Positions 1 through 16,740 of a stretch of 64,000 bases of DNA are shown in pieces. A program made the position numbers and the translations under genes. The notes under the pieces are model-generated. The model made no database searches, had not been told where the DNA came from, and worked only from the letters and a program-made list of their open reading frames with translations. Source of the stretch: a virus; the IMG/VR virus record IMGVR_UViG_3300045988_179760; one strand, written 5' to 3'. Each line of letters starts with the position of its first letter. Position 1 is the stretch's first letter.

Positions 1-422
1 AGAATGATACTGATTTCCCCGACGGAAGTCCGTTGGATGAACTGCACAACGCCACGAACGGTCATGGAACGCCGACTCAATGTTACCTTGTCGCCAAGAT
101 GCAATCGTTCTCCGACGAGATAATCATCCAATTTGGTCACTAGTTCAGCGCCGGTTTCGATGAACGGGTGGAAACTGTTCATCGGGTTCCGCAGGAAGCT
201 TCCTACCTTGTATTGCCAGTCGCGTTCTGCCTCGTGCAGTGTTGCGAATCCGTTTCCTCCAGTCGTTTGCAATCCGTGTTCATCCAGACATAGGTGGGAG
301 TATTCCCAGCCTTTAGGTCGGTAGAGTAGGTACCCGTCCCACATTCCGCACATTTCGTTTTTGGCCTGATATCTGAATTTCGGGGTTCCACTGCAACATG
401 GGCAGGTGAGCAGATTCTTCAC
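1..422 (-). CDS. Zn-ribbon protein (CxxC...C, possibly Lar-like restriction alleviation), partial; its 3' end lies beyond the window start
   Basis: Open minus-strand frame with no stop from GTG at 422 to position 1. The GTG overlaps the upstream stop as GTGA. Translation VKNLLTCPCCSGTPKF...CGMWDGYLLYRPKGWEY. Not in the ORF track because it has no in-window stop. Confidence 0.4.
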   Translation of the reverse strand, partial: MKNLLTCPCCSGTPKFRYQAKNEMCGMWDGYLLYRPKGWEYSHLCLDEHGLQTTGGNGFATLHEAERDWQYKVGSFLRNPMNSFHPFIETGAELVTKLDDYLVGERLHLGDKVTLSRRSMTVRGVVQFIQRTSVGEISII

Positions 423-673
423 GACTGTTCCTCTCTGGTTTCCAGCAGTTTGTCCAGTTTTTCTTCGATGCTTTCCAACCGCAGTCGCAACGCTTGCTGA
501 TTTTCGTAGATAGCCGCAACCTCGCCAGAAACCGCATAGCTTTTGTCGCCATACATGTCGTGCTTGTTGTCGGCTTGTTTCTCAAGCTTCGCTATCTCCC
601 GCTCCCGTTGCGACGGCTTGCGTGATTTCAGATAGTCCCTGCATTCGGGATTGAACATGTCCTCATACCCCAT
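419..673 (-). CDS. hypothetical coiled-coil protein (84 aa)
   Basis: ORF track. Charged heptad-like sequence, co-directional and translationally coupled with neighbours. Confidence 0.5.
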   Translation of the reverse strand: MGYEDMFNPECRDYLKSRKPSQREREIAKLEKQADNKHDMYGDKSYAVSGEVAAIYENQQALRLRLESIEEKLDKLLETREEQS

Positions 674-1258
674 TCAGCGTCCAAACTCCTCTCTACGCAT
701 AGCCTCATACAGCATGTTCTCCTGAGTCGCGTCAGACAAGGCACGATGCTCCTCCACGTCACCGATACCATAGTCGCGGATAAGCACGGCAACCTTATGG
801 CTCGGCTTTTCGGGATGGATTTTCCGACTCATTTCCAACGTGTCCACGAACCGGTGCGGGAAGAAGAACATTCCACCGTTCACGGTTTTCATGGCCGCGT
901 CCAAGAAACTCAAATCGAATGACGCGTTATGCGCCATGATGATGGTTCGCGGGCCAATCCACTTGTCGAATCGGATGATGGCTTGGCTTACGTCGGGTTG
1001 TCCGACGACCATACTGTCGTTGATTCCGGTGAGCGAGGTGATGTATTCGGGGATTGGCTGGTGTGGGTCAATCAGTTGCTCGTATCGGTCTACGAGTTTT
1101 CCGTCATGGATTTTCACGGCTCCGATTTCAATGAGTTTAGCCCCGTTTTCAGGTTTGAAACCGGTGGTTTCGGTATCCAAGACCACGTAATCGTAGAGTG
1201 GTGTTTTCATTGGGTCGATTCTTCTGGGGTCTCGACTTTGGTATTTGTCCCAGCTCAT
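674..1258 (-). CDS. DnaQ-like 3'-5' exonuclease (DEDD family)
   Basis: Exo I motif VVLDTETTGF, plus the ...HNASFDLSFL and ...HRALSDA motifs typical of the DNA Pol III epsilon/DEDDh exonuclease fold. Confidence 0.75.
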   Translation of the reverse strand: MSWDKYQSRDPRRIDPMKTPLYDYVVLDTETTGFKPENGAKLIEIGAVKIHDGKLVDRYEQLIDPHQPIPEYITSLTGINDSMVVGQPDVSQAIIRFDKWIGPRTIIMAHNASFDLSFLDAAMKTVNGGMFFFPHRFVDTLEMSRKIHPEKPSHKVAVLIRDYGIGDVEEHRALSDATQENMLYEAMRREEFGR

Positions 1259-1285
1259 GGTGTGGTCTCCTCGGGTAATTGAATG

Positions 1286-1304
1286 TGTGGACGTTTCTAG
1301 TATA
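1286..1304 (-). promoter_or_regulatory. degenerate copy of the conserved promoter-like motif (tgtggacgtttctagtata)
   Basis: Matches the TATACTnGAAnnGTCCACA variant consensus, upstream of the exonuclease gene start. Confidence 0.4.
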
Positions 1305-1308
1305 ACGC

Positions 1309-1579
1309 CTATTTGGTGATGGCCTTGACACGCCCGTCCAGAACCGTTCTCACGACATCCTCGAAGTCCGTGCCGTCAGGCAATAGGTGGGAGTCTTGGA
1401 GGGTTCCGATAATCTTCAACAGTTCCGTATGCCCGTGCGGAGTGCGCTTATAGTCGCGGGTCGCACCCGCCTTGTATGCGCGACGCAACTGCAACGCCAA
1501 CTGCTCCCGTGTGAGCGTGATGAAGTCTCCTTCCTCGATGGGATACCGTTCTTCCAGTTCTTCGTTGAGAATGCTCATT
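1309..1579 (-). CDS. hypothetical protein (start probably MSILNEELEE)
   Basis: ORF 1309..1623. An internal Met with an AAAGGAAAAA RBS avoids overlap with the upstream gene. Confidence 0.5.
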
Positions 1580-1603
1580 TTTTTGTTTTTCCTTTCTGTT
1601 TTT

Positions 1604-1999
1604 TCAGACGTACATTCCCTCATGCCAGCCGTGTAGCAAACCCCATTCGGATAGTTTCCGGAACCATTTCTCGCATTCGTCAGCCACCTTGTTGGGATAA
1701 TCCAACGTCGGGTTCACGTTGAGTAAATACTGGTAGTCGTAGGGTTGGCAGAAGTTCTCGTCCAACACGTCAATCTGCCAGTCGCTACCGTCCTTGGCAA
1801 TCTCGACATTCAATGTCATGTCATGGTCGGGGGAGACTGAACGGCAGAGGTACCAATACCCCTCACGGTGGTCGGTGAACCCCAGTCGGCGCATGGTCGA
1901 ATCTTCGGCGGAACTCATGCTAAGCGCCGCATTGTTCTGATGCTTCGTGTAGGTGACGCCTATGGTCGAGAATCGAGGCGTGTTCTGATTGTCGGACAT
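1604..1999 (-). CDS. hypothetical protein (131 aa)
   Basis: ORF track. RBS AGGAGAGAAC precedes the ATG. Confidence 0.55.
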   Translation of the reverse strand: MSDNQNTPRFSTIGVTYTKHQNNAALSMSSAEDSTMRRLGFTDHREGYWYLCRSVSPDHDMTLNVEIAKDGSDWQIDVLDENFCQPYDYQYLLNVNPTLDYPNKVADECEKWFRKLSEWGLLHGWHEGMYV

Positions 2000-2007
2000 G
2001 TTCTCTC

Positions 2008-2366
2008 CTATTCTTCGCTTTCGCGCAAGTCGATTACCGGAATATGGGTATCGGCGGAATAGTGGACGGAATAAGGGTCGATTGTCCTATGCCGCCAACT
2101 GACACCACCTTCCACCGGCCAAGCCAACCAGCTTATGCCGTCCAAATAGTTCAGAATGCTGACGTGAGCAATCCAACGGCACCATCTTGCCGGGCATATC
2201 ACGTCGAACATGGGAGTATCCTCGGTTCCCGGTCGGCAGGAATGCCGTTGCCAAGAACGAAGGCATACGCGGTAGAGCGCATAGGAGTCATATGTTGGCA
2301 GTTCCTTGGTGTCGAATACCGCGCGAGTTGGGTGGTCATCGAAGAGGATTCGTTTGCCGAATTTAG
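2008..2366 (-). CDS. hypothetical Cys/Trp-rich protein, probable TTG start
   Basis: The 2008..2571 ORF reads through the promoter motif at 2416-2434. A TTG lies 6 nt after an AAAGGAGGA RBS at 2366. Confidence 0.4.
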
Positions 2367-2415
2367 TTGCTTGATTCAATGCGTCCTCCTTTTTGGGTTT
2401 TGTCTTTGTTTTTGT

Positions 2416-2434
2416 TGTGAACAATCCCACTATA
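2416..2434 (-). promoter_or_regulatory. conserved promoter-like motif copy (tgtgaacaatcccactata)
   Basis: Direct sequence match to the repeated motif, positioned between the GNAT stop and the next gene start. Confidence 0.6.
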
Positions 2435-2467: not shown

Positions 2468-2923
2468 CTAAGCCAGCGTCCCGTTAAAAAAGAACTCCCT
2501 CTTCCCAACCCGATACAAACCCACACGAGAGACGGACAGACGAAAATCAAAACGACGGAAGAAACCCTCATACATCGGCAACAACTCTTCCGGCACTGTC
2601 ACCAGAGGGAACCGTTCATCCAGCGATTTCAATGCATATTCGACCAGCGTGGAACCAACCCCTCGACTCCGAAAACCCTCGTAGACATACAAAGTGCAAA
2701 TCTTCCGTTCAGACGGATTTCTCTTGAGAACGCAAAACCCCGCCAACTCACCGTCTATATAGGCTAAAAGAATCACACGGTCTTCCCCCAATGAGGGGAG
2801 AACCGTGCGGTCGAACCAAATATCGAAGCCGGGATAATACGTTCGGATTGTCCCCGGAATGGGAATAGAAGCCGCAGTGCCAGCGTCCCGAACTACACTA
2901 ATCCTCAACGAACTCGAACACAT
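2468..2923 (-). CDS. GNAT family N-acetyltransferase
   Basis: Acetyl-CoA binding-like motif ...LYVYEGFRSRGVGSTLVEYAL..., 151 aa. Confidence 0.7.
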   Translation of the reverse strand: MCSSSLRISVVRDAGTAASIPIPGTIRTYYPGFDIWFDRTVLPSLGEDRVILLAYIDGELAGFCVLKRNPSERKICTLYVYEGFRSRGVGSTLVEYALKSLDERFPLVTVPEELLPMYEGFFRRFDFRLSVSRVGLYRVGKREFFFNGTLA

Positions 2924-3224: not shown

Positions 3225-3440
3225 TTAGAATTCCGGCTCCTCAACATTCAACAACACCAGTTTCGGACGGCGGCGCAGAATCCTGCAATCCTCTGCCCAC
3301 GCGTCCAAAATTTCGCAAGCCAATACGGGTGCTTCCGGAGCCAGAGTAGGCATGGTGTTCAGAATCGACTGGACGGAGTCTAAGTCTGCGAAGGGAAGTT
3401 CCGTCGCATTATTGGCTGCATCCAAAAGATAGTGGGGCAT
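3225..3440 (-). CDS. hypothetical protein (start at MPHYLLD with GGAAGGAG RBS)
   Basis: ORF 3225..3500. The internal Met at 3440 has a strong RBS, whereas the upstream Met has none. Confidence 0.5.
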   Translation of the reverse strand: MPHYLLDAANNATELPFADLDSVQSILNTMPTLAPEAPVLACEILDAWAEDCRILRRRPKLVLLNVEEPEF

Positions 3441-3593
3441 TCGTGCTCCTTCCAAAAATTGAAAAGAAAAAGCCTGTGGGCAACGATTTTCCACAGGCAT
3501 TCTTAGCTTATTATTCGATTTCGCGAGGCTTCAGAACTTTGTCTGAAACACCAGCGCAATCGCGCTCAATAATAGACTTTTTTTACCGACTTT

Positions 3594-3756
3594 TATTCGT
3601 CGCACAAGTCGGTGTTGCGTCTGCCATATTCGTTTCGTTTCTTGGCTTGCGGATTCCAAGCGCTACCTGCATCCCATTCGATGTGAGTGGAACGGTTTTC
3701 CCTGTGAGTGTTGTTCTTGTTGGCATTGCCGGTGTTAATCCAGTCGTGGTTGCTCA
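3594..3756 (-). CDS. small hypothetical protein (54 aa, MSNHDWINTGNANKNN...)
   Basis: Hand-translated minus-strand ORF filling the 3.5-3.77 kb gap. Below the track size cut-off. Confidence 0.3.
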
Positions 3757-3769
3757 TTTTTTTCTACTT

Positions 3770-4144
3770 TCAGTAGCAGTCATCGCACCAACCGGTGTCC
3801 CCGCACGGATTCTCGTTTTCGTCGGTTAGCAGACAACCGCAACCGCTGCAATACATGTTGTCCGGATTGTCGGACGAAGCGAAAGAACCTTCCCTGACAA
3901 TGTTACCAGCCAAGTCGGTGATGGTGTAGATTGCCCGAGTGTCGGCTTCCGGTGCGGGATAGCCGGACATGCCTAGAATCCTGTTGTACACGTTCGTCAG
4001 TAGAGTGCGAACGTTTCCCACCTGACGAGTCCCATTCAGAATGGGAGCCGTCAAATGGTCGAAGAATCCTACCGTCGTATCCCAAGAATGCTGACCTTCG
4101 TGGATTTCAATTTCCAGCTTTTCCTTGCCGTCCGTGAATCGCAT
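3770..4144 (-). CDS. hypothetical Cys-rich protein (C-terminal CSGCGC...CGDTGWCDDCY)
   Basis: ORF track. Cys cluster suggests metal binding. Confidence 0.5.
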   Translation of the reverse strand: MRFTDGKEKLEIEIHEGQHSWDTTVGFFDHLTAPILNGTRQVGNVRTLLTNVYNRILGMSGYPAPEADTRAIYTITDLAGNIVREGSFASSDNPDNMYCSGCGCLLTDENENPCGDTGWCDDCY

Positions 4145-4154
4145 TTTCGTTTTT

Positions 4155-4517
4155 CTACAATTCCCTCATGGCCTTGTCTAAATCGGACACAATCGCGTCA
4201 TACAGTCCGTCAACATCCAACGATTCCAGCTTGTGCGACGGCAAATCCACGGGAGTGTATTCCCCGTCGTCGAAAGTCCAATGCTCGACCGAAACCGTGT
4301 ATACTCCTCCACTCCAACGGTAGGAACGTCTGCCGTTATGTTGCGAGTCTGCCACAAGATAGTATTCGAACATCTTGCCCATGTATGGGCATTGGAATGC
4401 GACTTCGATTCCGTCTCCGAAGATGGCGTGGGTGGCGTGTGCGCCGGTCACGTATGGGATTTTGACAAGCTTGTCAATGAGTTTCCGATAGGTGTCTTCG
4501 CTGATTTTCGAGTACAT
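4155..4517 (-). CDS. hypothetical protein (120 aa)
   Basis: ORF track. Lies 10 nt upstream of the next gene (coupled). Confidence 0.5.
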   Translation of the reverse strand: MYSKISEDTYRKLIDKLVKIPYVTGAHATHAIFGDGIEVAFQCPYMGKMFEYYLVADSQHNGRRSYRWSGGVYTVSVEHWTFDDGEYTPVDLPSHKLESLDVDGLYDAIVSDLDKAMREL

Positions 4518-4838: not shown

Positions 4839-4871
4839 GTTATGTGCTCCTTTTTGCCTATCGCTCTTTGT

Positions 4872-4890
4872 GTGAACAATTCCACTATAG
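4872..4890 (-). promoter_or_regulatory. conserved promoter-like motif copy (tgtgaacaattccactata)
   Basis: Direct match. Confidence 0.6.
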
Positions 4891-4970: not shown

Positions 4971-5936
4971 TCAATCGGACAAACCGGCACGGGCACGCAT
5001 CTTGCGTTTAATCTCGCTACCCTTGGCAAACAAGCGCTCCATACGGGCCACGGTCTGCAACGCCTTCTTATACTCCTCCAATCGAGAAGAGATTTGCCAA
5101 TTACGAGGTTCCGCCAACGACTCCTCAATCAGAGAATCGGGAACATCCCACATAAAGGACATAATCCAACGGCGGTTTTCCCCGCCCATGCGACGCCACA
5201 AGCGCACGGCACGCTTACCTTTGACCCATTCCGGATTATTAAACAAGACTTGGATGGCGGATTCGTCGGAGAGGGAGTCCAGCAATGGGTCTATGTCCGT
5301 TTCTTCCGCCAATGGTGCCGATAGGGCGCGAATGGTTTCGTCTTCGCTTTTTACCCAATGCTCGAAGCAGAGCCTATCGGCCAGCTTGTTTTCCACCATG
5401 TAGCGGATAACGTCGTAATCCGTCTCCTCCCAGTACATGCTTGCAACGGTATGCTTTGCGGCGAGCTTGCGTAGTTCGGGGTCTTTGTCCTTGGCGAGAC
5501 CAATCGCGGTCTTATAGTTAAGCTTTCCCTTGTATTCCAAATAGTCGGCCACTTTGCGGCGAACGTCACGACTCCGGTCTTTCAACACGGTTTCACGCAG
5601 TCCGTCGTATATTTTTCCGTCCTCGATTTTCATGTTGTACTTCAACTTGCAGTTGATGTAGTAGTGACGGAATGGTAGGGGGAGCAGAAATATTCTTCCA
5701 CTCCGGTAGATGTTCTTGATGCTTTCCAGCAGGTCGATTCCCTTGTTGGTAAGCTTCCAACGGTCGTGTTCCTTGGTCAGTTCGATTAGGTTGGCTTCCT
5801 TGATTTTGTCTAAGGGCTTCTGGTCGATGTATGCGCTCAGTCGTTGCGAGTGGGTTTCGTTGTCGAAGTCCTCGAAGTAGTAGACGAGGTTGGCGTTCCA
5901 CTTTTTGGTGAGAGTTTTGATTTCGTTGTTGTCCAT
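4971..5936 (-). CDS. HEAT/ARM-like repeat protein (paralog A)
   Basis: 321 aa. Alignable along its length with the 6385..7326 protein (NYYF, ...IRLxAAKN..., ...EYxxAxxxVxxxxxxF...). Confidence 0.6.
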   Translation of the reverse strand: MDNNEIKTLTKKWNANLVYYFEDFDNETHSQRLSAYIDQKPLDKIKEANLIELTKEHDRWKLTNKGIDLLESIKNIYRSGRIFLLPLPFRHYYINCKLKYNMKIEDGKIYDGLRETVLKDRSRDVRRKVADYLEYKGKLNYKTAIGLAKDKDPELRKLAAKHTVASMYWEETDYDVIRYMVENKLADRLCFEHWVKSEDETIRALSAPLAEETDIDPLLDSLSDESAIQVLFNNPEWVKGKRAVRLWRRMGGENRRWIMSFMWDVPDSLIEESLAEPRNWQISSRLEEYKKALQTVARMERLFAKGSEIKRKMRARAGLSD

Positions 5937-5962
5937 GGTTTCTCCTTTTCTGGTATATCTTG

Positions 5963-5981
5963 TGTGAACAATTCCAGTATA
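5963..5981 (-). promoter_or_regulatory. conserved promoter-like motif copy (tgtgaacaattccagtata)
   Basis: Direct match 20 nt upstream of the 5936 start region. Confidence 0.65.
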
Positions 5982-6145: not shown

Positions 6146-6373
6146 TCATAACGGCATGGCTTCGGCTGTGCGTTCTTTTTCCTGCTCTTTCTGCTCTATC
6201 AACTGGTCTATTTGGCTTTGCTCATTGCGGTGCTGCCATGAAAGTGGTTCGTTGCCTTGGGCTAGGTTCTCATACACCGTGTATTCGTGCCCGCGATAGC
6301 TGTAGACAAGATAGACCATATGTGCGTCGTATCCGTGCCCGTAGTATTTTCTGATAAATGTCGCTTTTCGCAT
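6146..6373 (-). CDS. hypothetical protein (start MRKATFIRKYYGHGYD)
   Basis: ORF 6146..6415. The internal Met avoids overlap with the upstream gene. Confidence 0.4.
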   Translation of the reverse strand: MRKATFIRKYYGHGYDAHMVYLVYSYRGHEYTVYENLAQGNEPLSWQHRNEQSQIDQLIEQKEQEKERTAEAMPL

Positions 6374-6384: not shown

Positions 6385-7326
6385 TCAACCAATCTCGCGC
6401 TCGGCACGCTCCCAAATCTTCCGGCGAATCTCACTGTCCTCGGAGAACATCGTACCCAACTCCAACACTTGACGGACAGCTTCTCGGTATTCCTCCAAAC
6501 GGTCATGCAAGGCCATGTACGCGTCGCTTTTGAACGCCTGATTGATGAATGAGTCCGGCATGTCGCGCATGACCTTGACCAGCCTGTAACGTCCCGCCTC
6601 GTCCGCGTTCTCCCAAGCGTTCATGACTCGTTCACGCGTGGCCCACTGCGGCTTGCAGGCCAGTACATGCGCCACATCCTGTGAGTCGAGGCGGGCCAAC
6701 ACTTCATCCACCTTGCCGTCTTCGGTCAGAAGAGCCGCCTGAACGCGAATCTGACTGTTGGGATTGTCCAGCCAATGTTCGACGCATTCCTCATCGAAAT
6801 TATGGTTATAGATAAGAGTCTTGACCACGCGCTCGTCCGACTCCTCGAAGAAGAGGTGAGGGTCTGCGTTCTTTGCCGCCATGAGTCGAATCTGATAATC
6901 CTCGTCGTGGGCCAAACCGTTCGACGTTTCCTTGTCGAGCTTGCTGAACTTGTTGAGCATTGTGGCCGCTTTCTTGCGAATCTCGGCGCTCCTGTCATGT
7001 AGGGCAACTTTGGATAGTTCCTTGACGGGTAGTTTCTTTTCGTCGTATACGCGCCAGTCGAAGTAGTAGTTACGGACTTTCAGGGGTAGTTCGGAGAGTT
7101 TGCCGGAGTTGAAATGCTGTCTGATGTTGGCGAGTTCGTCTTCGCCTGTTTGGGTGAGAGTCCAGTCGCCCGTCTCGTTTTCCTGAATGAGTCCGGCTTT
7201 GGCGAGTTTGGTGATGTCGCGGTCGGGGAATACTCGGCGTTCGGGTTCACGCTCGAATCGCATGAATTCGTAGACTGCGGTTTCGTTCCAGTTGATGTCG
7301 CTCATTTTTTGCTCCTTGGCTTCCAT
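6385..7326 (-). CDS. HEAT/ARM-like repeat protein (paralog B)
   Basis: The first 14 residues of ORF 6385..7368 are the translated motif. True start is MEAKEQKMSD. Paralog of the 4971..5936 protein. Confidence 0.6.
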   Translation of the reverse strand: MEAKEQKMSDINWNETAVYEFMRFEREPERRVFPDRDITKLAKAGLIQENETGDWTLTQTGEDELANIRQHFNSGKLSELPLKVRNYYFDWRVYDEKKLPVKELSKVALHDRSAEIRKKAATMLNKFSKLDKETSNGLAHDEDYQIRLMAAKNADPHLFFEESDERVVKTLIYNHNFDEECVEHWLDNPNSQIRVQAALLTEDGKVDEVLARLDSQDVAHVLACKPQWATRERVMNAWENADEAGRYRLVKVMRDMPDSFINQAFKSDAYMALHDRLEEYREAVRQVLELGTMFSEDSEIRRKIWERAEREIG

Positions 7327-7333
7327 ATTTTTG

Positions 7334-7352
7334 TGTGAACAATTCCAGTATA
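7334..7352 (-). promoter_or_regulatory. conserved promoter-like motif copy (tgtgaacaattccagtata)
   Basis: Direct match. Confidence 0.65.
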
Positions 7353-7431: not shown

Positions 7432-7650
7432 TCAGCAGACGCTCGCGGAACCATCATCGCAAAGAGAGCATAACAGGCAACCGATGCCGTTAATATCCCT
7501 TGTCAGATGCACGCCCTTGGTGGAGCCGCACTCCTCACAACGAATGCCACTGCGCTTACGAGCGGTATTGGGAGTGCGGGAGAGGGCAGACCCACGACGG
7601 TAGGTTTCCTTCCTTGGCGTGCCTATGACGTATTCCACACCGTCCAACAC
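7432..7650 (-). CDS. small Cys-rich (Zn-ribbon-like) protein
   Basis: CEECGS...CLLCSLC motif, 72 aa. Confidence 0.4.
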   Translation of the reverse strand: MLDGVEYVIGTPRKETYRRGSALSRTPNTARKRSGIRCEECGSTKGVHLTRDINGIGCLLCSLCDDGSASVC

Positions 7651-9185: not shown

Positions 9186-9300
9186 AACTCAAACCCCTGC
9201 AATACCGGTCGGAATCTCTTCCATTAAAAAACATTAAGAAAGACACGTCCGACCGGCAACAGGAATCACGGGATTTCAATCCCGTGAGGAAGTCAAGATG
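9186..9300 (+). ncRNA. candidate TnpB right-end / omega-RNA scaffold region
   Basis: Hairpin CACGGGAtttcaaTCCCGTG lies just 3' of the tnpB stop. IS605-family omegaRNAs derive from this position. Confidence 0.3.
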
Positions 9301-9469
9301 TTCACGTGAGACACCTCGCCGTTGGCTTTGAATACCGGGAACTCGTCGGTTTCACCAGCCTCGCTCCAATTGTCCCACCACTCTTTCGGGATTCGGACTT
9401 TCCAACCGTCCTTTAGCTTCGTCCAAATCGGACGGGGTTCGGTCTTGGCGTCTTCGATAGTTTCACTCA
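9276..9469 (-). CDS. small hypothetical protein (MSETIEDAKTEPRPIW...)
   Basis: Internal Met of ORF 9276..9689 with an AAAGGACAAAAA RBS. Confidence 0.4.
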
Positions 9470-9481
9470 TTTTTTGTCCTT

Positions 9482-9859
9482 TCAGCGAGTGTATCCGATT
9501 TTCCTCAGCACATGGTCTTCGGGGTCGGAGAGATGCTTGATGACCTCTTCCGGCGTAAGGCTGATTCTCTTCGTGTGGAGCAGGGGTTGGAACGAGCAAG
9601 TGCGGAGGAACTTCGTGACCACGCCGTCTCTGCTCATGCGGGAGGGAATCTTCTGGTTTCGATACTGGCGGTAGGTGAAGCGGAGCCAACGAATCGCCTG
9701 TTTCGAATCGATGGTCTTCACATGGGGATTATCAGCGTAGGCTTTCACCCAGTTATTGCGTTCGGTGGCGCTGTGGAAAATCTGGATTAGTGGAATGTTG
9801 TTGTCAGGGTCGAGCTTCTGGTTGGGATGGTTGACTATGGCGGCGTAGTAGGTGTTCAT
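9482..9859 (-). CDS. hypothetical protein (start MNTYYAAIVNHPNQ)
   Basis: ORF 9482..9967 trimmed to the first Met downstream of the motif at 9889-9907. Confidence 0.5.
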   Translation of the reverse strand: MNTYYAAIVNHPNQKLDPDNNIPLIQIFHSATERNNWVKAYADNPHVKTIDSKQAIRWLRFTYRQYRNQKIPSRMSRDGVVTKFLRTCSFQPLLHTKRISLTPEEVIKHLSDPEDHVLRKIGYTR

Positions 9860-9888
9860 GGGTTGCTCCTTTTGTAGACCAAGTTTTT

Positions 9889-9907
9889 GTGTGAACAATC
9901 CCAGTAT
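9889..9907 (-). promoter_or_regulatory. conserved promoter-like motif copy (tgtgaacaatcccagtata)
   Basis: Direct match. Confidence 0.65.
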
Positions 9908-10320
9908 ATATTCAAGAATAGCAATCACGCAAGTCGGCACGTCAAAACAAACTACCCAATCACACAAAAACCAGCAAGCCTATCAATGCAATAATCGACA
10001 GATAGGCCAGAACCATAAGAGACAATCCAACCCGCAGACCCCATCCCCAAGCCAATACGCGAGAATCGTTCTCCCTACCGACCTCTTCCATTTTGCGGCT
10101 CCAAGCCTGAACCTTATCGGTCAACTCGTTCTGCGTGAGCCAATTGCCGTCACGGTCGAACGGGCTAGGCTGATACGGCAGGTAGAAGAATCCCCTCCAT
10201 ATCCAATGGTGGCAATGCCGGATACGGTGGAATATTATGCCGCCAGATTTGCGCGGAACGGCGCAACCCCATACGGAACGCCGGATTACGCACCGTGTCC
10301 AATAAACCCATTTTCTACTC

Positions 10321-10731
10321 CTATCGAAAAGTTAACGGCTCTTCGCCTATCCTCACAAGCAACTCGTTCAGTTCAGGTATGAGAATATCCGTTCCAAGCG
10401 CTTCAACATCATGTTTGGTGAGGTAGAACACTTGCCCGTCCTTGTAACGCAACATGCCGTCAGTGTCGAACGATAGGCTTTCGAACATGGTTTCGACCAT
10501 ATCCCAGAACAGGCTTCCGAACTGCTCTTTAGTCCGTTCGTCATGCAGAACCGTGTACACCGCGCGGGAATACTGTTCACCGCGTTTCAAATCCTTGTTC
10601 AGGCAACGTTCGCAACGATGGCATCCGTCCAAGTCTTTCATGCAGTCGGAGCATAACGGTCGGGAGCATTCGGGGCAGAGGATAGTCCACTTGTTTGTTT
10701 TGCAGATTGCGCAGATTCCGTTGTTCAGCAC
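10321..10731 (-). CDS. Zn-finger protein (CAICKTNKWTILCPECSRPLCSDCMKDLDGCHRCERC)
   Basis: Eight-Cys treble-clef/RING-like N-terminus, 136 aa. Confidence 0.5.
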   Translation of the reverse strand: MLNNGICAICKTNKWTILCPECSRPLCSDCMKDLDGCHRCERCLNKDLKRGEQYSRAVYTVLHDERTKEQFGSLFWDMVETMFESLSFDTDGMLRYKDGQVFYLTKHDVEALGTDILIPELNELLVRIGEEPLTFR

Positions 10732-10781: not shown

Positions 10782-11504
10782 TCAGTCCAACGGTTTGCCG
10801 CGTCCGACAATCTTCTTACCGTCCGCGTTCCGCAACCATGCCAAGCCGTGACCATAGGAAACAACACCAGCTTTGACGGTCGGATTCTGCTGGAACGTGT
10901 AATAAACTTCCACCAGTCCGCCGCCACCGTTCGCTTGCAGAATACGAATCCTGTAATCCTTTTCCACGGCTTTGACGGCCATATCCCGTTCGAGTTCATC
11001 AAACCAACCGTAAAGTGGGAGCATGGCGAAAGCGGCTAATACTCCTACGGTGATGAACCGCCAATATGTTTTGGCCCCTACCAGTAGGGCGATTACCGCC
11101 ACGAGAACGCCGATGATGGCGATTCCGGCCACGAGCTGGCGCCAATTGCCGTTGCAATCGTATTCGACGGGAGCATAGGGATTGGTGAGGGTCGGCGCGG
11201 ATTTGACGGGTTTTGACTGTTTGTGTGGGATGGTCGGCCTGTAGGTCTTCGGCTCTTTCGTGGACACGGTTTCGGTCTTTGCTTTAGGTTCCGTCTTGAC
11301 TGTAGGGTCGTTCTTCGGTTCGACGGGCTTAGGAACGTTCTTCTTTTCAGCTTCCACGGGCGGTGCCGGTGGTTTCAACATTTTCCGTTCCGTCTCTTTG
11401 ACCACTCTTTGAAGTTCGATGGTGGTGGACGAGTCGGGTTCGTCCATCGGTTCCTGACCTAACATCATGAGGTCGTTTTCCAGCGAGACATCCCGTTCTT
11501 TCAT
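10782..11504 (-). CDS. membrane protein with Pro/Lys-rich linker and one TM segment
   Basis: Hydrophobic stretch AGIAIIGVLVAVIALLVGA. Low-complexity PAPPVEAEKK region. Confidence 0.5.
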   Translation of the reverse strand: MKERDVSLENDLMMLGQEPMDEPDSSTTIELQRVVKETERKMLKPPAPPVEAEKKNVPKPVEPKNDPTVKTEPKAKTETVSTKEPKTYRPTIPHKQSKPVKSAPTLTNPYAPVEYDCNGNWRQLVAGIAIIGVLVAVIALLVGAKTYWRFITVGVLAAFAMLPLYGWFDELERDMAVKAVEKDYRIRILQANGGGGLVEVYYTFQQNPTVKAGVVSYGHGLAWLRNADGKKIVGRGKPLD

Positions 11505-11589: not shown

Positions 11590-11886
11590 TCAGAGGATTC
11601 GGGTTCCCTTGCGGGTGACGAGCATGATTCTGTTTTCGTAGCGGTTCTCGAAAACGTCCCAGTTGCCGCTCAGGACAGCCAAGCACACATTGCCTTTGAT
11701 GAGGTTCCAACGTTCGTCGCAGTTGGATACGACGTGCTTCCAGTTGATTGGATTGGGCTTGTGGTGGGAGGTTTCCACGATGGCTTCGGTCATAGGCCTG
11801 TCTGCGTAGGCGTGGTCGTAGGTGTTGTCACTCGCGACGATGCTGATGGTGCCGTTGTCGAATGCGATTGGCTGGATGGTGTTCAT
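11590..11886 (-). CDS. hypothetical protein (start MNTIQPIAFDNG)
   Basis: ORF 11590..11940 trimmed so the start lies downstream of the motif at 11926-11944. Confidence 0.5.
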   Translation of the reverse strand: MNTIQPIAFDNGTISIVASDNTYDHAYADRPMTEAIVETSHHKPNPINWKHVVSNCDERWNLIKGNVCLAVLSGNWDVFENRYENRIMLVTRKGTRIL

Positions 11887-11925
11887 GTTTTCTCCTTTTG
11901 TTGTTGTGAGGCCGAACCCTTTTTG

Positions 11926-11944
11926 TGTGGACATGACCACTATA
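11926..11944 (-). promoter_or_regulatory. conserved promoter-like motif copy, variant (tgtggacatgaccactata)
   Basis: Match to the CACTATAACACA subfamily. Confidence 0.5.
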
Positions 11945-11996: not shown

Positions 11997-12188
11997 CTAG
12001 AAGCGGAAGACCAAGCCCTGCGCCCTGACGAAAGACCTCAGAGCCTTCGGGGGGGGGTCGAGGATGGTTCCCCCGTGTTCGTGGGTATACTGTTCGGCGC
12101 TCTCAAGCGAAGTTAAGAGTGTGAGCTGGTCTTCGTATTCGACTGGCCACACCTGCTGTGTCTGCTGGTAGGCGTGTTCTATATACAT
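11997..12188 (-). CDS. small hypothetical protein (63 aa)
   Basis: ORF track. Motif 12216-12234 lies immediately upstream. Confidence 0.45.
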   Translation of the reverse strand: MYIEHAYQQTQQVWPVEYEDQLTLLTSLESAEQYTHEHGGTILDPPPKALRSFVRAQGLVFRF

Positions 12189-12215
12189 GTTGTTCTCCTT
12201 TTTAAATGGTTTTTG

Positions 12216-12234
12216 TGTGGACGATTCCAGTATA
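12216..12234 (-). promoter_or_regulatory. conserved promoter-like motif copy (tgtggacgattccagtata)
   Basis: Direct match. Confidence 0.6.
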
Positions 12235-12313: not shown

Positions 12314-12709
12314 TCAGGGAATCAGCTGCCAAATCCGCCAGCCGACCAACCCCAACAGTACGAGCACCCCAATCGCATACATCCACGTGCCCGCGTATCC
12401 GCCCGCGAGGAACGCGCTCATCCGACGTTTCCGTTGCTCCAGCAGTGCGTACCATTCGCTCTCGCAACGGTCGAACATGTCCGCGTCCATGCGGGTGCCT
12501 CCGTACATGTCGAGCCAATCGCGCACGGTCGGCATGGGACCCAACGGGTCACGCAGACGGGCGTGCGGTATGAGGGCTATTTTCAACCCCTGCCACACGC
12601 CCTTGAGAAAGAACGCGGGTAGCCTGTCCCCGGTCATGACAGCTCCCCACATGGTTCGACGGTTTGCCTCAGCCCCCGTTCGACCAGTGCTCTCACCGCC
12701 GCGTTCCAC
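12314..12709 (-). CDS. membrane protein (C-terminal TM segments)
   Basis: YAGTWMYAIGVLVLLGLVGWRIWQLIP hydrophobic C-terminus. Confidence 0.45.
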   Translation of the reverse strand: MERGGESTGRTGAEANRRTMWGAVMTGDRLPAFFLKGVWQGLKIALIPHARLRDPLGPMPTVRDWLDMYGGTRMDADMFDRCESEWYALLEQRKRRMSAFLAGGYAGTWMYAIGVLVLLGLVGWRIWQLIP

Positions 12710-12718
12710 GTGAGTTCG

Positions 12719-12976
12719 TTATCGTCGGCGTACTGCATGGTCAGCCGGTACAGGTCGGCGGGCAACATGACCACACGGTTCACGTTCGGCATCGCGTTGC
12801 CTCCAGAACAGGTGGGCGAGCGAATCGGCGTCGATGTACCGGCGTCGTCCGATTTTGTAGGTGCGTATGCGACCGGCCTTCAGCAGGTCGTACACGTGCT
12901 GGCGTGAGCAGGAGAGGTAGGCCATCGTGTCAGCTATAGTGAGGATGGCTGGCAGTTCCTTGGCTTTGGTTCTCAT
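12719..12976 (-). CDS. Xis/AlpA (MerR-superfamily excisionase-type) HTH DNA-binding protein
   Basis: LTIADTMAYLSCSRQHVYDLLKAGRIRTYKIGRRRYIDADSL matches the excisionase-family HTH pattern (..S..T.Y.L...G.......IGRR....). Start trimmed to MRTKAKELP. Confidence 0.6.
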   Translation of the reverse strand: MRTKAKELPAILTIADTMAYLSCSRQHVYDLLKAGRIRTYKIGRRRYIDADSLAHLFWRQRDAEREPCGHVARRPVPADHAVRRR

Positions 12977-12993: not shown

Positions 12994-13383
12994 TTAATAC
13001 CGGCATTCGCAACCGGAATCCAAAAACTCGTGTTCGCCGTCGCTCCACAGCACGGCCTCTATGGTCGAAGGGTCGTTCAGGTCGATGAAAAACGCGGCAA
13101 GCTCGTCCGCCGACAAGCGGGAGAACTCCTCGCCCACGGCTTTATAGAATTCGTCCCAAGCGGCTTGGTCGGCGTCCGATTCCATGAGCGTGGAGAACCG
13201 TTCCGCCAGTTGCGTGGATGGGAGTATGGCATGGGAGAAGCCTTCATCCGTGATATCGAGCCATGCATTCAAGCACCTGTCGGCCAGTTCTCCGACCGGG
13301 AAGGTCAGCATTCTCGTGGCGGTGCCCGTCCACTTGGTTTTTTTTAGAAAACTGACTTCTACGGCCTTGGTCTTGTGTTCCAT
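12994..13383 (-). CDS. acidic hypothetical protein (paralog of 14219..14596)
   Basis: Shared blocks with the 14219..14596 protein: FxKKxxWxGT, ADxCxxAWLDIxD, DSDAxQAxWDEFY, ELAxxFxxLNDPxTI, DSxCE. Confidence 0.55.
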   Translation of the reverse strand: MEHKTKAVEVSFLKKTKWTGTATRMLTFPVGELADRCLNAWLDITDEGFSHAILPSTQLAERFSTLMESDADQAAWDEFYKAVGEEFSRLSADELAAFFIDLNDPSTIEAVLWSDGEHEFLDSGCECRY

Positions 13384-13416
13384 GGTCTAACTCCTATTCA
13401 ATGGCTTTCTGTTTTT

Positions 13417-13435
13417 GTGTGAACGATTCCAGTAT
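13417..13435 (-). promoter_or_regulatory. conserved promoter-like motif copy (tgtgaacgattccagtata)
   Basis: Direct match. Confidence 0.65.
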
Positions 13436-13498
13436 ACATGAATGCACAAGAACGTCAAACCAGCTTCCAGCCAAGCGCGTTTTCAATGCATTAAGGCG

Positions 13499-13714
13499 TC
13501 AAAGCGAACCATGTCCGCGTGTCCTCTCCAAGGCGAACTGATAGGCGACTTCATCCAGTTCCTTGGGTTCCAACCCGTCCAGCACGGCGAGTGCGAACCT
13601 CACACGCTCACGGTCATCGACCGGCAACCAGATGTCGTCGGCTCCCGCGACGACGTGAATGCCCATGCCGTCGTTGTCGCTGATGTAGTCGAATCCGGTG
13701 AACTTGACATTCAT
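13499..13714 (-). CDS. small hypothetical protein (start MNVKFTGFDY)
   Basis: ORF 13499..13792 trimmed downstream of the motif at 13784-13802. RBS GGAGGAAG present. Confidence 0.5.
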   Translation of the reverse strand: MNVKFTGFDYISDNDGMGIHVVAGADDIWLPVDDRERVRFALAVLDGLEPKELDEVAYQFALERTRGHGSL

Positions 13715-13783
13715 GCTTCCTCCTTTTTTCTCAGTCTTCCCCGTTGTCTGAACGATGCGACGTAATACGGTTCCAATGTTTTG

Positions 13784-13802
13784 TGTGAACAATTCCAGTA
13801 TA
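13784..13802 (-). promoter_or_regulatory. conserved promoter-like motif copy (tgtgaacaattccagtata)
   Basis: Direct match. Confidence 0.65.
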
Positions 13803-13884: not shown

Positions 13885-14085
13885 CTAACGATTCATGCTC
13901 AAACGAACCTCAACCGCGACGGTCAGCAACACCACCGTAATGGCGCACACGGATACGATACCGAACGTGCGGCCAAACGTGAACAGCCAAGTGCCGAACG
14001 AGTAGATGCCGAACGCGACTGCGGTTGCCACCCCACCGAAAGCGATGGTGACAAGCGTCATAAGCAGAACATCCTTGATATACAT
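13885..14085 (-). CDS. small membrane protein (2 TM)
   Basis: 66 aa, hydrophobic throughout. Motif at 14127-14145 upstream. Confidence 0.45.
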   Translation of the reverse strand: MYIKDVLLMTLVTIAFGGVATAVAFGIYSFGTWLFTFGRTFGIVSVCAITVVLLTVAVEVRLSMNR

Positions 14086-14126
14086 TTTTTCTCCTTTTGG
14101 TGATGGGTTTTACGAACCCTTGTTTG

Positions 14127-14145
14127 TGTGAACAATTCCAGTATA
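14127..14145 (-). promoter_or_regulatory. conserved promoter-like motif copy (tgtgaacaattccagtata)
   Basis: Direct match. Confidence 0.65.
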
Positions 14146-14218: not shown

Positions 14219-14596
14219 TCAGAACTCATACTCGCAATCGGAATCGAGATACCATTTGTCGCCGTAACCCCAAAGAACACGACGGATGGTCGCAGGGTCG
14301 TTTAGCTCAACGAACTTGGACGCCAGTTCATCCACCGACTTGGCGGAAAAAGCCTTGCCGACGGAAGCGTAGAATTCATCCCATTCCGCCTGTTCGGCGT
14401 CGGAATCGACCAGCTCACGGAACCGTCCGGCAAGCTTCTCGTCCGGCAGTGTCGCTTCCGCAGAATTCGTGTCCTCTATATCCAACCAAGCGCCGAAACA
14501 CTTGTCGGCCAACGATTTAACCGGAATGGTGAGGATGCTGGAATACGTGCCCTTCCAAGCGTTCTTCTTGAAGAAGCTAACGTCTCGTGCCTTCAT
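14219..14596 (-). CDS. acidic hypothetical protein (paralog of 12994..13383)
   Basis: Start MKARDVSFF. Conserved blocks with the 12994..13383 protein. Confidence 0.55.
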   Translation of the reverse strand: MKARDVSFFKKNAWKGTYSSILTIPVKSLADKCFGAWLDIEDTNSAEATLPDEKLAGRFRELVDSDAEQAEWDEFYASVGKAFSAKSVDELASKFVELNDPATIRRVLWGYGDKWYLDSDCEYEF

Positions 14597-14610
14597 TTTC
14601 CCCGTTCCTC

Positions 14611-15105
14611 CTATTCTTCCTCGCCGTCCGCCTGACGGAGCGGAACGATACGGTTCCACTGTTCCTCATACTCGTCCTCCGCGTCCTTGGAACCATTGTC
14701 CAGCAGTTTGTTCAACGTGGCTCGTCCTACGTCGCTGAGACGACTGATGCTGCGGAGAATGCTCGCCACGTCGTCGGCTTCGTATAGTTTATTGCGATTG
14801 TCCGACAGTTCTTGATACTTCGAGTCGGTGAGGTTCCAAACATAGTCTTCCAGCAGTTTCCAGTCTTCTTTTTCGGCAGAGGGTACTGGAATCGGCTTGG
14901 TGAGCCGCCAATCTTCGAGAATGTCCACCCAAAGGTCGGTCTTGACGTTGTATTCGCCAAGGTCTTCCTCGTGGGTGAGTTTTTCGATTCGTTGTTCTTC
15001 GCCGTTCTCGTCCAAGTAGTCTATTGTGAGATATTCACTATCCACTGACAAGGTGGAGAGTTCGCGTAGCTTGGTGATTTTGAGGTTGGTGATTGTGTTA
15101 ATCAT
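14611..15105 (-). CDS. highly acidic hypothetical protein (DNA-mimic-like composition)
   Basis: Start MINTITNLK downstream of the motif. Very D/E-rich, ending ...ADGEEE. Confidence 0.5.
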   Translation of the reverse strand: MINTITNLKITKLRELSTLSVDSEYLTIDYLDENGEEQRIEKLTHEEDLGEYNVKTDLWVDILEDWRLTKPIPVPSAEKEDWKLLEDYVWNLTDSKYQELSDNRNKLYEADDVASILRSISRLSDVGRATLNKLLDNGSKDAEDEYEEQWNRIVPLRQADGEEE

Positions 15106-15136
15106 TTTTGTTCCTCCTTGTTGGAATCTATCTTTT

Positions 15137-15155
15137 GTGTGAACAATCCCAGTAT
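15137..15155 (-). promoter_or_regulatory. conserved promoter-like motif copy (tgtgaacaatcccagtata)
   Basis: Direct match. Confidence 0.65.
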
Positions 15156-15217
15156 ACCATGTTTGTTGGGAAAACAAAAACAGCCCACTCCCCAAAACAA
15201 GGAAGCGGGCTGAAAAG

Positions 15218-16041
15218 TCAGGCATTCAGCAAAGCATGGGACGAAACACCCATTTCAGACAAACCCAAACCCACATTGTTCGCGTCACTCACACCACGAG
15301 CAAAACCATCCTTGCTACCACGAGCAGTGGCCGCACGACCCGGCACCAGCTCAAGCTTGTCAAAATACTCGTTCAGACGCTGACTCTTGCATGACACCAG
15401 CTCACGACCGGAAGGAATGGCGAGACTCTGCTTGCGAAGCTCCTCGAAACGTTCGCTCAAACGTTCGTTGAATCCACCGCGATAACCATAATAGAACTTG
15501 GCGCGTGGATAATCACGACGCATGTACTGTTTGCATTCCGTCAGCGTCGGATAGGATTCACGTCCGTAATGCGTTTCGACGTATTCCTTGTTGTCCTCAT
15601 AGTACGCTTTGGCGTGCTGGTCAATCATGTCCGCGTAGCTAGTGCGGGCGTGGACTGAGCAGTACAGGTCGATGCTTTGGAAGAGAAGGACTGCGGCGTT
15701 CACATCGTCCTCCTCGCCTACGAACATGACGGCACGTTCCTTAATCCTTCCGCCACACCGGCTTTCGTGAATGTAGGCGCGGCATTCGTTAGCTTGGGCG
15801 ATGATGGTCGCAAGGTAGCCTTGCTGATGGTAGATGGTGGTTTTGCTTACGTTCACGCCACGTTCGATGATTGGCTTGTTCGTGCGGGTGCGGTCGCGTT
15901 TCCAGTCTTCGATACGATATTCGTTGATGAGTTTCTGTGCCCGCTCGAACGCCATTTGCGCCTCATTGTCGCTGGAAGCTTCGTTTTCGGCTATTGCCAT
16001 GAGGTTGTTGATGCGTTCGATGATGCTGTCGATGTTGCTCA
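15218..16041 (-). CDS. hypothetical protein (274 aa)
   Basis: ORF 15218..16159 trimmed to MSNIDSIIERINNLM downstream of the motif. Confidence 0.5.
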
Positions 16042-16073
16042 TTTCTTGCTCCTTGGTTTTTCTTTTATCTTTT

Positions 16074-16092
16074 GTGTGAACAATCCCAGTAT
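16074..16092 (-). promoter_or_regulatory. conserved promoter-like motif copy (tgtgaacaatcccagtata)
   Basis: Direct match. Confidence 0.65.
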
Positions 16093-16195
16093 ACAGCGTG
16101 CGAAAAAACGACACACCCAAAAAACTATAAACAACCTCCGAAAAAACAAACCCCTCCAACCTATAAGGGAAGGAAGAGTACTGTTACAGAATCGC

Positions 16196-16510
16196 TCAGG
16201 CGTCCAAGTGGGAATGATGCAGAAGCCTACGAACATTGATATTGTGGACAAACCTATCCTGACCGACAATCCTCGAAGCAAACTCCCTATCGGTATATCC
16301 ACCGTCGGAAACACCGTCCAAAACAGTCTCGGGAATATTGTCCAACATGTAATAGCTGACGCCGGTCTGACTCTCGACATGCTCGAAAAGCATGTAGTAG
16401 ACGCCCTCGGGGTCGTCTGTGAAACGACTCATGACATACGACTTGTCCTTGACTACGAAGATGTTGTAGTCCTCTGCGCCGAACTGCTTGAAGTATGCAG
16501 GCTTATTCAT
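16196..16510 (-). CDS. hypothetical protein (104 aa)
   Basis: ORF track. RBS AAGGAGAAAAA precedes the ATG. Confidence 0.5.
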   Translation of the reverse strand: MNKPAYFKQFGAEDYNIFVVKDKSYVMSRFTDDPEGVYYMLFEHVESQTGVSYYMLDNIPETVLDGVSDGGYTDREFASRIVGQDRFVHNINVRRLLHHSHLDA

Positions 16511-16541
16511 TTTTTTCTCCTTGGTTTTTCAACTTTTTTTA

Positions 16542-16560
16542 TGTGAACGATTCCAGTATA
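16542..16560 (-). promoter_or_regulatory. conserved promoter-like motif copy (tgtgaacgattccagtata)
   Basis: Direct match. Outermost copy of the 2.4-16.6 kb series. Confidence 0.65.
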
Positions 16561-16740
16561 CTCCAAGCGTGGAAACAATACAAAAAAAGAGGGACGGAGA
16601 CCAAAACGGAAACCGTCCCTCAATGCCTTTTAGAAAAGTGACCTTATCTCAAACAAGAATCTATTTTAAACCACTTCCGTTTAGGCCGTCAACCTCTACT
16701 CTCGACAAAGCTGCCCATTATCGAACTTAACCCCTTGGTA

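Follow-up and report, generated by a model that had tools for sequence, protein, structure and literature searches.

A box-headed array of small genes in a new lineage of the Bifidobacterium megaplasmid family of pMP7017

This report concerns an array of small genes at positions 1-16600 of a 64,000-nt stretch of DNA (hereafter the window) from the IMG/VR record IMGVR_UViG_3300045988_179760, a region that a sequence-only reading had described as a leading-region-like island with anti-defence content. We read it as the promoter-proximal half of a cargo array of about 30 kb that would form one regulon under a conserved promoter box, be shuffled as cassettes, serve establishment or counter-defence and lie upstream of type IV secretion system (T4SS) genes, and we put the probability of this reading at about 0.55. 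The element that carries the array is, judged by its backbone proteins, a new and diverged lineage, about 222 kb in size, of the Bifidobacterium megaplasmid family founded by pMP7017, a plasmid described as conjugative and theta-replicating. Arrays of this kind and a motif of this kind are already known; what is new is the diverged lineage and about 25 unnamed small genes.

The affiliation with pMP7017, whose host is Bifidobacterium breve JCM7017 (Dineen et al. 2024, PMC10832533), is based on gene order as well as on similarity. Twenty-six window proteins outside insertion sequences (IS) map onto pMP7017 at 28-70% identity with the order of genes largely kept, and 32.9-61.6 kb of the window is collinear with 60.3 to 34.8 kb of pMP7017 at 30-70% amino acid identity. 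A PLSDB search with the 1318-aa protein encoded at 49703-53659 returned pMP7017-type Bifidobacterium megaplasmids at 44-48% identity. Dineen et al. (PMC10832533) counted a genome as pMP7017-positive at 70% identity or more to the pMP7017 backbone proteins; here one small protein reaches 70.4% and the remaining backbone proteins are 28-66% identical, and because this falls under the cut-off we treat the element as a lineage of its own within the family. Also present in the window are genes for DnaB, for a homolog of the RepA_C initiator and for ParA-type ATPases, and the sortase and pilin genes of a sortase-dependent pilus. Thus the replication and partition functions that had been claimed for the element are there, but nothing in the window itself could be recognised as a transfer gene.

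The lineage is well represented in metagenomes. Exact copies of the array proteins g2, g31 and g32 (gene numbers as in Table 1) occur on 217-231-kb contigs in many human-gut metagenome assemblies (1110 to 1673 index blocks), and relatives of the array proteins bear Bifidobacterium names in public sources, including B. pseudocatenulatum. Nucleotide and protein searches of PLSDB found pMP7017-type Bifidobacterium plasmids as the only relatives apart from an 88% match to a TnpB element, which was also the sole PLSDB match in a megablast search with the array. Megablast of a phage collection with the array, and a scan of a genome-contig collection with g32, gave no match.

Combining lists of open reading frames (ORFs) with checks for a ribosome-binding site (RBS) and a codon score, we defined 33 candidate genes in the array, g1-g33, most of which are supported by independent gene calls on near-identical metagenome contigs. 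After correction the array comprises 30 intact genes, a further gene that an IS divides and a partial gene at the left edge, all on the minus strand, so the dense single-strand array first reported stands but its count of some 35 genes comes down to about 31. Two ORFs were rejected as genes in their own right. ORF 203-391 (g1) is spurious because the real gene, a 189-aa ORF that starts at 422, occupies a different frame; ORF 7432-7650 (g17), which could be taken for an independent Zn-ribbon gene, is a fragment left by an IS insertion and forms, with 9276-9470 (g18), the two halves of one 137-aa gene that is intact in the variant L020 (1640-2053). The corrected genes fall into 14 transcription units of one to seven genes, every one of them headed by a copy of the box, and just upstream of several boxes stand strong terminator-like hairpins (Table 1). 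An arrangement in which each gene is individually promoted by the motif was rejected because 14 boxes serve about 31 genes.

The array is not confined to 1-16600 as had been supposed; it continues on the same strand for at least 10 kb beyond the left edge of the window, where it encodes an RNA ligase (62% identical to that of pMP7017) as well as proteins of ATP-grasp-like and DUF3310 type. Using the latter protein to extend outward from the array brought the T4SS genes into reach. L055, an IMG/VR contig, is 98.5% identical to and collinear with this left continuation. On L055 further box-driven genes are followed by a pair of paralogs of 417 and 393 aa and then by an 886-aa VirB4-like ATPase of the AAA_10 family, which is 66% identical to its pMP7017 ortholog and on the same strand as the array; beyond it lie homologs of the next pMP7017 genes, including an annotated lysozyme gene. 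When viral contigs were scanned with the pMP7017 VirB4-like protein, as a single sequence and as an alignment, only close relatives of pMP7017 were found. Because the L055 continuation runs into the VirB4-like gene, the whole array would be about 30 kb long and would immediately precede the T4SS genes, in the same orientation.

This order resembles that of pMP7017, where the backbone is collinear and a box-headed array of small genes (73.6-84.7 kb) is likewise followed by the VirB4-like gene, at 84.8 kb. The two plasmids differ in the extent of the array upstream of the T4SS genes, about 30 kb in the window lineage compared to about 11 kb in pMP7017, and in its content, as a pMP7017 homolog is lacking for 27 of the 33 candidate ORFs. 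The two paralogs between array and VirB4-like gene (L055:12774-15226) are repeat proteins of LRV/HEAT-like type that loosely resemble g14 and g16 and are without a pMP7017 homolog; in the PDB, the 393-aa protein weakly matches a leucine-rich-repeat-variant protein.

The feature that ties the array together is the box, TGTGTGAACAATTCCAGTATA (reverse complement TATACTGGAATTGTTCACACA). As the sequence-only reading had noticed, it is a conserved motif: at three mismatches or fewer there are 12 copies in the window compared to 0 expected. A looser scan gave 14 copies between 1284 and 16560, all on the coding strand of the array, and 16 in the whole window. Each has the architecture of a promoter, with a -10 hexamer TATACT followed by GGAATTGTTCACACAAA, 15-30 nt ahead of the RBS. 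The only two window copies outside the array (37300-37320 and 60019-60039, both plus strand) head conserved-backbone genes on the plus strand; the pMP7017 homolog of a 126-aa gene at 37614-37994 adjoins two boxes, at 56070 and 56120, that diverge from each other.

Dineen et al. (PMC10832533) discovered a 34-bp motif, AWAYATGYTATACTGAATATGTCCACATAAAAWA, in pMP7017 by way of the genes that an established host expressed most highly during log phase. The motif overlaps the -10 element, was reported in 19 copies said to drive 56 genes or about 24% of the coding capacity, and is missing from bifidobacterial chromosomes (PMC10832533). Rescanning pMP7017, we found 24 copies of the box, spread over the whole plasmid on either strand, among them sites before ssb and before the orthologs of the array's exonuclease and DUF2786 genes. 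The window consensus agrees with the published motif at most positions, and by this comparison the box is its diverged counterpart. Common to both plasmids are the TATACT hexamer with a conserved box 15-30 nt before the RBS, the runs of small and mostly unnamed genes that it heads, and the control of the exonuclease and DUF2786 orthologs. The differences are that the box has drifted, reading GGAATTGTTCACACA in the window lineage and GAATATGTCCACATA in pMP7017, and that the copies are concentrated in the array within the window whereas in pMP7017 they are dispersed.

We picture the array as a chain of short units, each a box and then one to seven small genes, several of them insulated by terminators. 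The box would mark a plasmid-specific regulon, probably read with the help of a factor that the plasmid itself encodes. One speculative candidate for this factor is the AAA_16 ATPase encoded at 16735-17955 on the plus strand, divergently from the first box of the array. Its C-terminus resembles a winged-helix DNA-binding domain, and its pMP7017 ortholog (173878-175044, 52% identical) is likewise divergent from a box, at 173725.

Rapid change within the array emerged when the window was compared with 16 loci whose sequence otherwise agrees with it at about 99.8% identity. One locus (L013) has a 6.8-kb deletion whose junction is a clean join of two identical boxes, two multi-cassette replacements distinguish L014 and L021 on the one hand and L020 on the other, L020 lacks the TnpB element and the GNAT gene, and L012 carries an extra, different IS inside g20. 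Further homology breakpoints lie at 13777, 7352 and 5981. Approximately 5 of the 12 breakpoints that do not involve an IS are within 5 nt of a box, while boxes with this margin make up an estimated 2.6% or so of the sequence. The replacement variants L014 and L021 contain an ArdC-type gene (ArdcN E 1.6e-12, Peptidase_M78 E 9e-9), the sole recognised anti-restriction family linked to the array; apart from it, a Pfam search of the variant-specific cassettes gave no match.

As it is repeated in direct orientation, the box also acts as a recombination point at which cassettes are deleted, swapped and duplicated, and this accounts for the fast turnover of the array between otherwise identical plasmids. 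A similar arrangement is known from the PeSL-bounded hyperplastic regions of T4-like phages (PMC2839356, PMC4122927), where cassettes are flanked by repeated composites of terminator and promoter and where, as in the array, the breakpoints of insertions, deletions and replacements fall on the repeats. The array differs from these regions in that it sits on an actinobacterial plasmid, its repeat is unrelated in sequence and terminators are not found at every unit. Insertion sequences add to the changes. The TnpB element at 7673-9296 is 88% identical in nucleotide sequence to a TnpB gene carried by a plasmid of B. longum, and a second TnpB gene stands at 62871-63995 on the plus strand; in the window, neither of the two has TnpA as a neighbour. 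Additional IS200/IS605 insertions are present in other variants, which indicates that elements of this type are active in the plasmid population.

IMG/VR catalogues contigs of this lineage, up to 217 kb long (L022-L079), as viral genomes, so that the array might instead be an early or nucleic-acid-metabolism module of a phage-like element, either a jumbo phage or a phage-plasmid, with host-takeover genes unrelated to conjugation. The likeness to the T4-like hyperplastic regions would suit such an origin, as would the RNA ligase and DUF3310 genes of the array's continuation and the PHROG matches of the exonuclease, acetyltransferase, excisionase-type HTH and DUF2786 proteins. It is nevertheless very improbable in our judgement, for the array adjoins a VirB4-like gene of the AAA_10 family (FtsK-type genes are present in pMP7017 as well), the backbone shares its gene order with that of a plasmid described as conjugative and theta-replicating, and the sortase-dependent pilus, RepA_C and ParA are plasmid-like. 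Neither capsid nor terminase nor tail genes were found among the window's larger proteins, and because of this the viral listing of the lineage is probably a misclassification.

Turning to the content of the array, we ran Pfam, PHROGs and NCBIfam on all small proteins as concatenated queries. Named families were assigned to the DnaQ-type exonuclease g3, the GNAT acetyltransferase g7, the excisionase-type helix-turn-helix (HTH) protein g26 and the DUF2786/DUF7168 protein g32, and weakly (HEAT) to g14 and g16; E values are given in Table 1. The first three of these had already been read correctly from the sequence, as had the two pairs of paralogs, g14 with g16 (31% identity) and g27 with g30 (54%). 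Homologs in pMP7017 exist for only 6 of the 33 candidate ORFs. Among them, g3 is 56% identical to the exonuclease at 82026-82622, g32 is 30% identical to a box-driven gene (27466-28245) beside two orphan methyltransferase genes, and the homolog of g24 is the gene directly after the annotated Lar gene. In B. pseudocatenulatum, a 59-aa ortholog of g26 goes under the name of an HTH-domain protein. Thirty small array proteins were also compared by sequence with the PDB, without a match. Within 1-16600 no member of a named anti-defence family (ArdA, KlcA, Ocr, Lar or anti-CRISPR) was found, even at permissive thresholds, in agreement with what had first been noted, nor was there any orphan methyltransferase, single-stranded DNA-binding protein (SSB) or toxin-antitoxin gene by Pfam, PHROGs, NCBIfam or PDB sequence search.

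The 189-aa protein at the left edge had been described as a Lar-like Zn-ribbon protein. Its N-terminus, CPCCSGTPKF, has a CPxC-GTP motif in common with the annotated Lar of pMP7017, and the resemblance is best described as one at the level of the motif only. We rejected the assignment to Lar: the protein has no Pfam match at E values up to 0.1 and no match to the NCBIfam Lar model, blastp aligns just 15 of its residues with the pMP7017 Lar (E 0.11), and its homologs, all from this lineage, are unnamed and without a Pfam domain.

Three other products, g27, g30 and g31, had been singled out as strongly acidic and DNA-mimic-like. The composition was confirmed, with pI values of 4.39, 4.56 and 4.35, net charges of -14, -8 and -20, and an Asp plus Glu content of 24% in g31 (164 aa) and 19% in g27 and g30; but this is not distinctive within the array since 10 of the 33 candidate ORFs have a pI below 5. 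Homologs of g31 come from this lineage only (53-100% identity), and a profile search of 1.84 billion representative proteins placed the g27/g30 family in only 55 clusters, where Pfam on ten of the longer members revealed nothing informative. AlphaFold models of both families are confident (pLDDT about 82) and showed no fold similarity to solved structures (for g27/g30, by Foldseek against the PDB), nor did any ArdA or Ocr family model match. From these confident but unmatched models, g31 and the g27/g30 family are predicted to lie outside every structurally known anti-defence family. The likeness to the DNA mimics ArdA and Ocr is one of composition, g31 being small and strongly acidic and g27 and g30 similar but milder; a new kind of DNA mimic among them is conceivable.

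The question that follows is whether the array is a true leading region, with oriT at or near the junction of array and T4SS genes, so that the array would enter the recipient first, be read from the transferred strand and neutralise defences early. Such a first-to-enter anti-defence role is plausible. Leading-region islands have methyltransferases, SSBs and anti-restriction genes as their hallmarks (Samuel & Burstein 2024, PMC11541004), and the array shares with them a run of small one-strand genes adjoining transfer genes, a variable content that turns over rapidly between nearly identical plasmids, and an ArdC gene in a sister variant. Its genes have a single orientation, upstream of the VirB4-like gene of L055 and on the same strand, and pMP7017, the founding member of its family, is described as conjugative. 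The F plasmid has a comparable layout, with leading genes, oriT and tra genes all on one strand. There is also a connection through pMP7017, in which Lar and orphan methyltransferase genes are neighbours of array-gene homologs and the same box precedes ssb.

Other observations do not fit this view. MOB-suite typing in PLSDB labels pMP7017-type plasmids 'non-mobilizable', and the pMP7017 literature, the original 2015 description aside, makes no mention of an oriT or a relaxase. Pfam on 10 large pMP7017 proteins found only AAA_10 and FtsK and no relaxase, PDB searches with large proteins, four from the window and two from L055, likewise returned none, and between the array and the VirB4-like gene of L055, where the two large genes (417 and 393 aa) encode repeat proteins, no gene was recognised as relaxase-like. 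Unlike the leading-region islands (PMC11541004), the array has no hairpin promoters of the Frpo or ssi type and no recognised anti-defence, SSB, methyltransferase or toxin-antitoxin gene in 1-16600. We found one short inverted repeat in 17 kb and nothing resembling an Frpo-like single-strand promoter; when folded as single-stranded DNA, the intergenic regions with boxes did no better than shuffled sequence (z about -1 to +1.5), strong structure was confined to terminators and IS ends, and an Rfam scan returned no RNA family. The promoters are instead ordinary sites of the double-strand type with a conserved box, and those of pMP7017 are active in established cells. Because the pMP7017 motif regulon is dispersed over both strands of the whole plasmid and highly expressed in log-phase cells of the established host, strictly early and transient expression is doubtful. 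Same-strand arrays of small genes, moreover, make up much of these plasmids, and the acidic proteins are without a match among solved structures. The original interpretation is partly supported. We regard a true leading region as possible, though on balance we lean against it. A more far-reaching version, in which an actinobacterial T4SS megaplasmid would have its establishment or leading region in this array, which would hold several unrecognised anti-defence families, including g31 and g27/g30 as new folds, all in one regulon and shuffled at the boxes, seems to us rather unlikely.

The array might also have no coherent function and be a tolerated dumping ground, where the boxes ease the insertion and deletion of unnamed genes and IS. 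Most of its genes are lineage-restricted, a large majority have no counterpart in pMP7017, insertion sequences have landed inside array genes, and natural variants such as L013 tolerate large deletions. Against this, the reading frames are intact and equipped with RBSs, promoters of their own and terminators, array families are 53-100% identical across diverged relatives with many invariant positions, both families that were modelled have confident folds, exact proteins recur in many assemblies, and the equivalent pMP7017 promoters belong to highly expressed genes. We consider a dumping ground distinctly unlikely.

Our preferred reading remains that of a cargo array with a role in establishment or counter-defence. 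The genes would most plausibly have establishment, counter-defence or host-manipulation functions, comparable to phage early genes or to plasmid anti-defence islands and placed just upstream of the T4SS genes. The ArdC variants, the exonuclease, GNAT, HTH and DUF2786 content, and the RNA ligase and DUF3310 genes past the left edge count in its favour. Several points weigh against it. Approximately 25 of about 31 genes have no match by family, name or structure, and their function is argued from context; the ArdC gene sits in a sister variant and not in the window; and the link between array and T4SS genes is taken from a 98.5%-identical relative, L055, and not from the window's own contig. A Pfam search of the conserved small backbone proteins did not find a regulator of the box, and the conserved box could be an element of the 5' untranslated region instead. 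Finally, turnover alone is no proof of an arms race because repeated boxes recombine regardless of the function of the genes between them.

Bifidobacteria are key gut commensals that are hard to manipulate genetically because of their defence systems, and the lineage described here is common in human-gut metagenome assemblies and is without close relatives in PLSDB, the collection of plasmids that was searched. Should a few of the approximately 25 unnamed genes prove to act against restriction-modification, CRISPR or other defences, these would represent new actinobacterial anti-defence families and possible tools for bringing DNA into bifidobacteria. The box-bounded cassettes also suggest how plasmids, like T4-type phages, might maintain fast-changing gene sets. 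The features of the array are collected in Table 1.

Table 1. Genes, box copies and inserted element of the array, in window coordinates; L numbers are related loci.
Feature	Position	Strand	Remarks
5' part (140 codons) of 189-aa gene, "Lar-like"	1..422	-	runs off left edge; full gene L018:10252-10821
g2, 84 aa, function not assigned by family	419..673	-	RBS; exact protein in 1673 index blocks; no family match
g3, 194 aa, DnaQ/DEDDh 3'-5' exonuclease	674..1258	-	RNase_T E 1e-32, phrog_192 E 2e-45
box copy, 4 mismatches, heads unit 14 (g3, g2, 189-aa gene)	1284..1304	-	
g4, 89 aa, no named family	1309..1578	-	
g5, 131 aa, acidic, no named family	1604..1999	-	
g6, 123 aa, TTG start after RBS, no named family	2008..2379	-	
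box copy, 4 mismatches, heads unit 13 (g6-g4)	2414..2434	-	
g7, 151 aa, GNAT acetyltransferase	2468..2923	-	Acetyltransf_1 E 7e-9, phrog_13728 E 1e-17; missing from L020
g8, 81 aa	2898..3143	-	42% identical to part of pMP7017 32196-32744
g9, 71 aa, acidic, no named family	3225..3440	-	
g10, 54 aa, no named family	3593..3757	-	
g11, 124 aa, acidic, C-terminus Cys-rich	3770..4144	-	no family match
g12, 120 aa, no named family	4155..4517	-	
g13, 85 aa	4581..4838	-	ArdC-like gene comes after g13 in L014 and L021
box copy, heads unit 12 (g13-g7)	4869..4889	-	terminator hairpin 4957-4925 upstream
g14, 321 aa, HEAT/LRV-like repeats	4971..5936	-	weak HEAT_2; 22% identical to pMP7017 79231-80163
box copy, heads unit 11	5961..5981	-	homology breakpoint in L020
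g15, 75 aa, no named family	6146..6373	-	
g16, 306 aa, HEAT/LRV-like repeats, g14 paralog	6385..7305	-	weak HEAT match
box copy, heads unit 10	7332..7352	-	recombination breakpoint in L013 and L014
3' fragment (Zn-ribbon part) of IS-split 137-aa gene	7432..7650	-	intact in L020
TnpB-only IS200/IS605-type insertion, TnpB ORF 7731-9185	7673..9296	+	boundaries from L020, where absent
5' fragment of IS-split 137-aa gene	9276..9470	-	intact in L020
g19, 125 aa, basic, no named family	9482..9859	-	
box copy, heads unit 9	9888..9908	-	
g20, 136 aa, 9 Cys, N-terminal zinc-finger-like region	10321..10731	-	weak B-box/HIT matches, E ~0.03
g21, 240 aa, probable membrane protein	10782..11504	-	hydrophobic stretches read in sequence
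g22, 98 aa, no named family	11590..11886	-	
box copy, 5 mismatches, heads unit 8 (g22-g20)	11924..11944	-	
g23, 63 aa, no named family	11997..12188	-	
box copy, heads unit 7	12214..12234	-	terminator hairpin 12309-12282 upstream
g24, 107-112 aa, hydrophobic C-terminal stretch	12314..12652	-	37% identical to pMP7017 132957-133289
g25, 52 aa, start uncertain (overlaps g26 tail)	12634..12792	-	
g26, 85 aa, excisionase/MerR-type HTH	12719..12976	-	HTH_17 E 9e-12, TIGR01764 E 3e-7
g27, 129 aa, acidic, g30 paralog	12994..13383	-	
box copy, heads unit 6 (g27-g24)	13416..13436	-	
g28, 71 aa, acidic, no named family	13499..13714	-	
box copy, heads unit 5	13782..13802	-	L014 homology breakpoint; terminator 13871-13849 upstream
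g29, 66 aa, hydrophobic, probably membrane-spanning	13885..14085	-	
box copy, heads unit 4	14125..14145	-	joined to 7332-7352 in L013 deletion
g30, 125 aa, acidic, g27 paralog	14219..14596	-	
g31, 164 aa, most acidic protein, lineage-restricted	14611..15105	-	
box copy, heads unit 3 (g31, g30)	15136..15156	-	terminator 15212-15181 upstream
g32, 274 aa, DUF2786 + DUF7168	15218..16042	-	Pfam E 7e-9 and 8e-8; phrog_421 E 9e-30
box copy, heads unit 2	16073..16093	-	
g33, 104 aa, array's first gene	16196..16510	-	
box copy, heads unit 1	16540..16560	-	divergent from AAA_16 ATPase gene 16735-17955

Elsewhere in the window there are genes of defence type. A three-gene operon that adjoins the array (18063-21178, minus strand) encodes a reverse transcriptase (409 aa, RVT_1) followed by unnamed genes of 203 and 335 aa; the enzyme has matches to defence-type reverse transcriptases (E 1e-25 and 1e-16), and the operon is possibly a reverse transcriptase-based defence system. 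It is truncated or has different neighbours in some variants. Farther along, a 318-aa AAA ATPase (39059-40015, plus strand) was matched by PADLOC, at E 1e-62, to IetA from the defence system IetAS. The next ORF (40012-40278) encodes 88 aa, has no Pfam match and is unlike the expected protease partner, so that the system at 39059-40278 looks incomplete or variant.

The conserved backbone includes a plus-strand module at 43146-55500 with a CobQ/ParA-like ATPase, an 886-aa ATPase for which neither Pfam nor the PDB gave a match, small proteins that weakly resemble transmembrane-region families, the 1318-aa protein and ParA; this module may be a second secretion or transfer apparatus. The cumulative GC skew of the window turns at about 18-20 kb and again at about 56-58 kb. 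The turn near 57 kb is close to the RepA_C gene (55609-56478) and matches the skew switch reported at 37.4 kb for pMP7017, and the one near 19 kb, which may be an old inversion or a replication landmark, divides the array from the pilus and DnaB block, both of which are on the minus strand.

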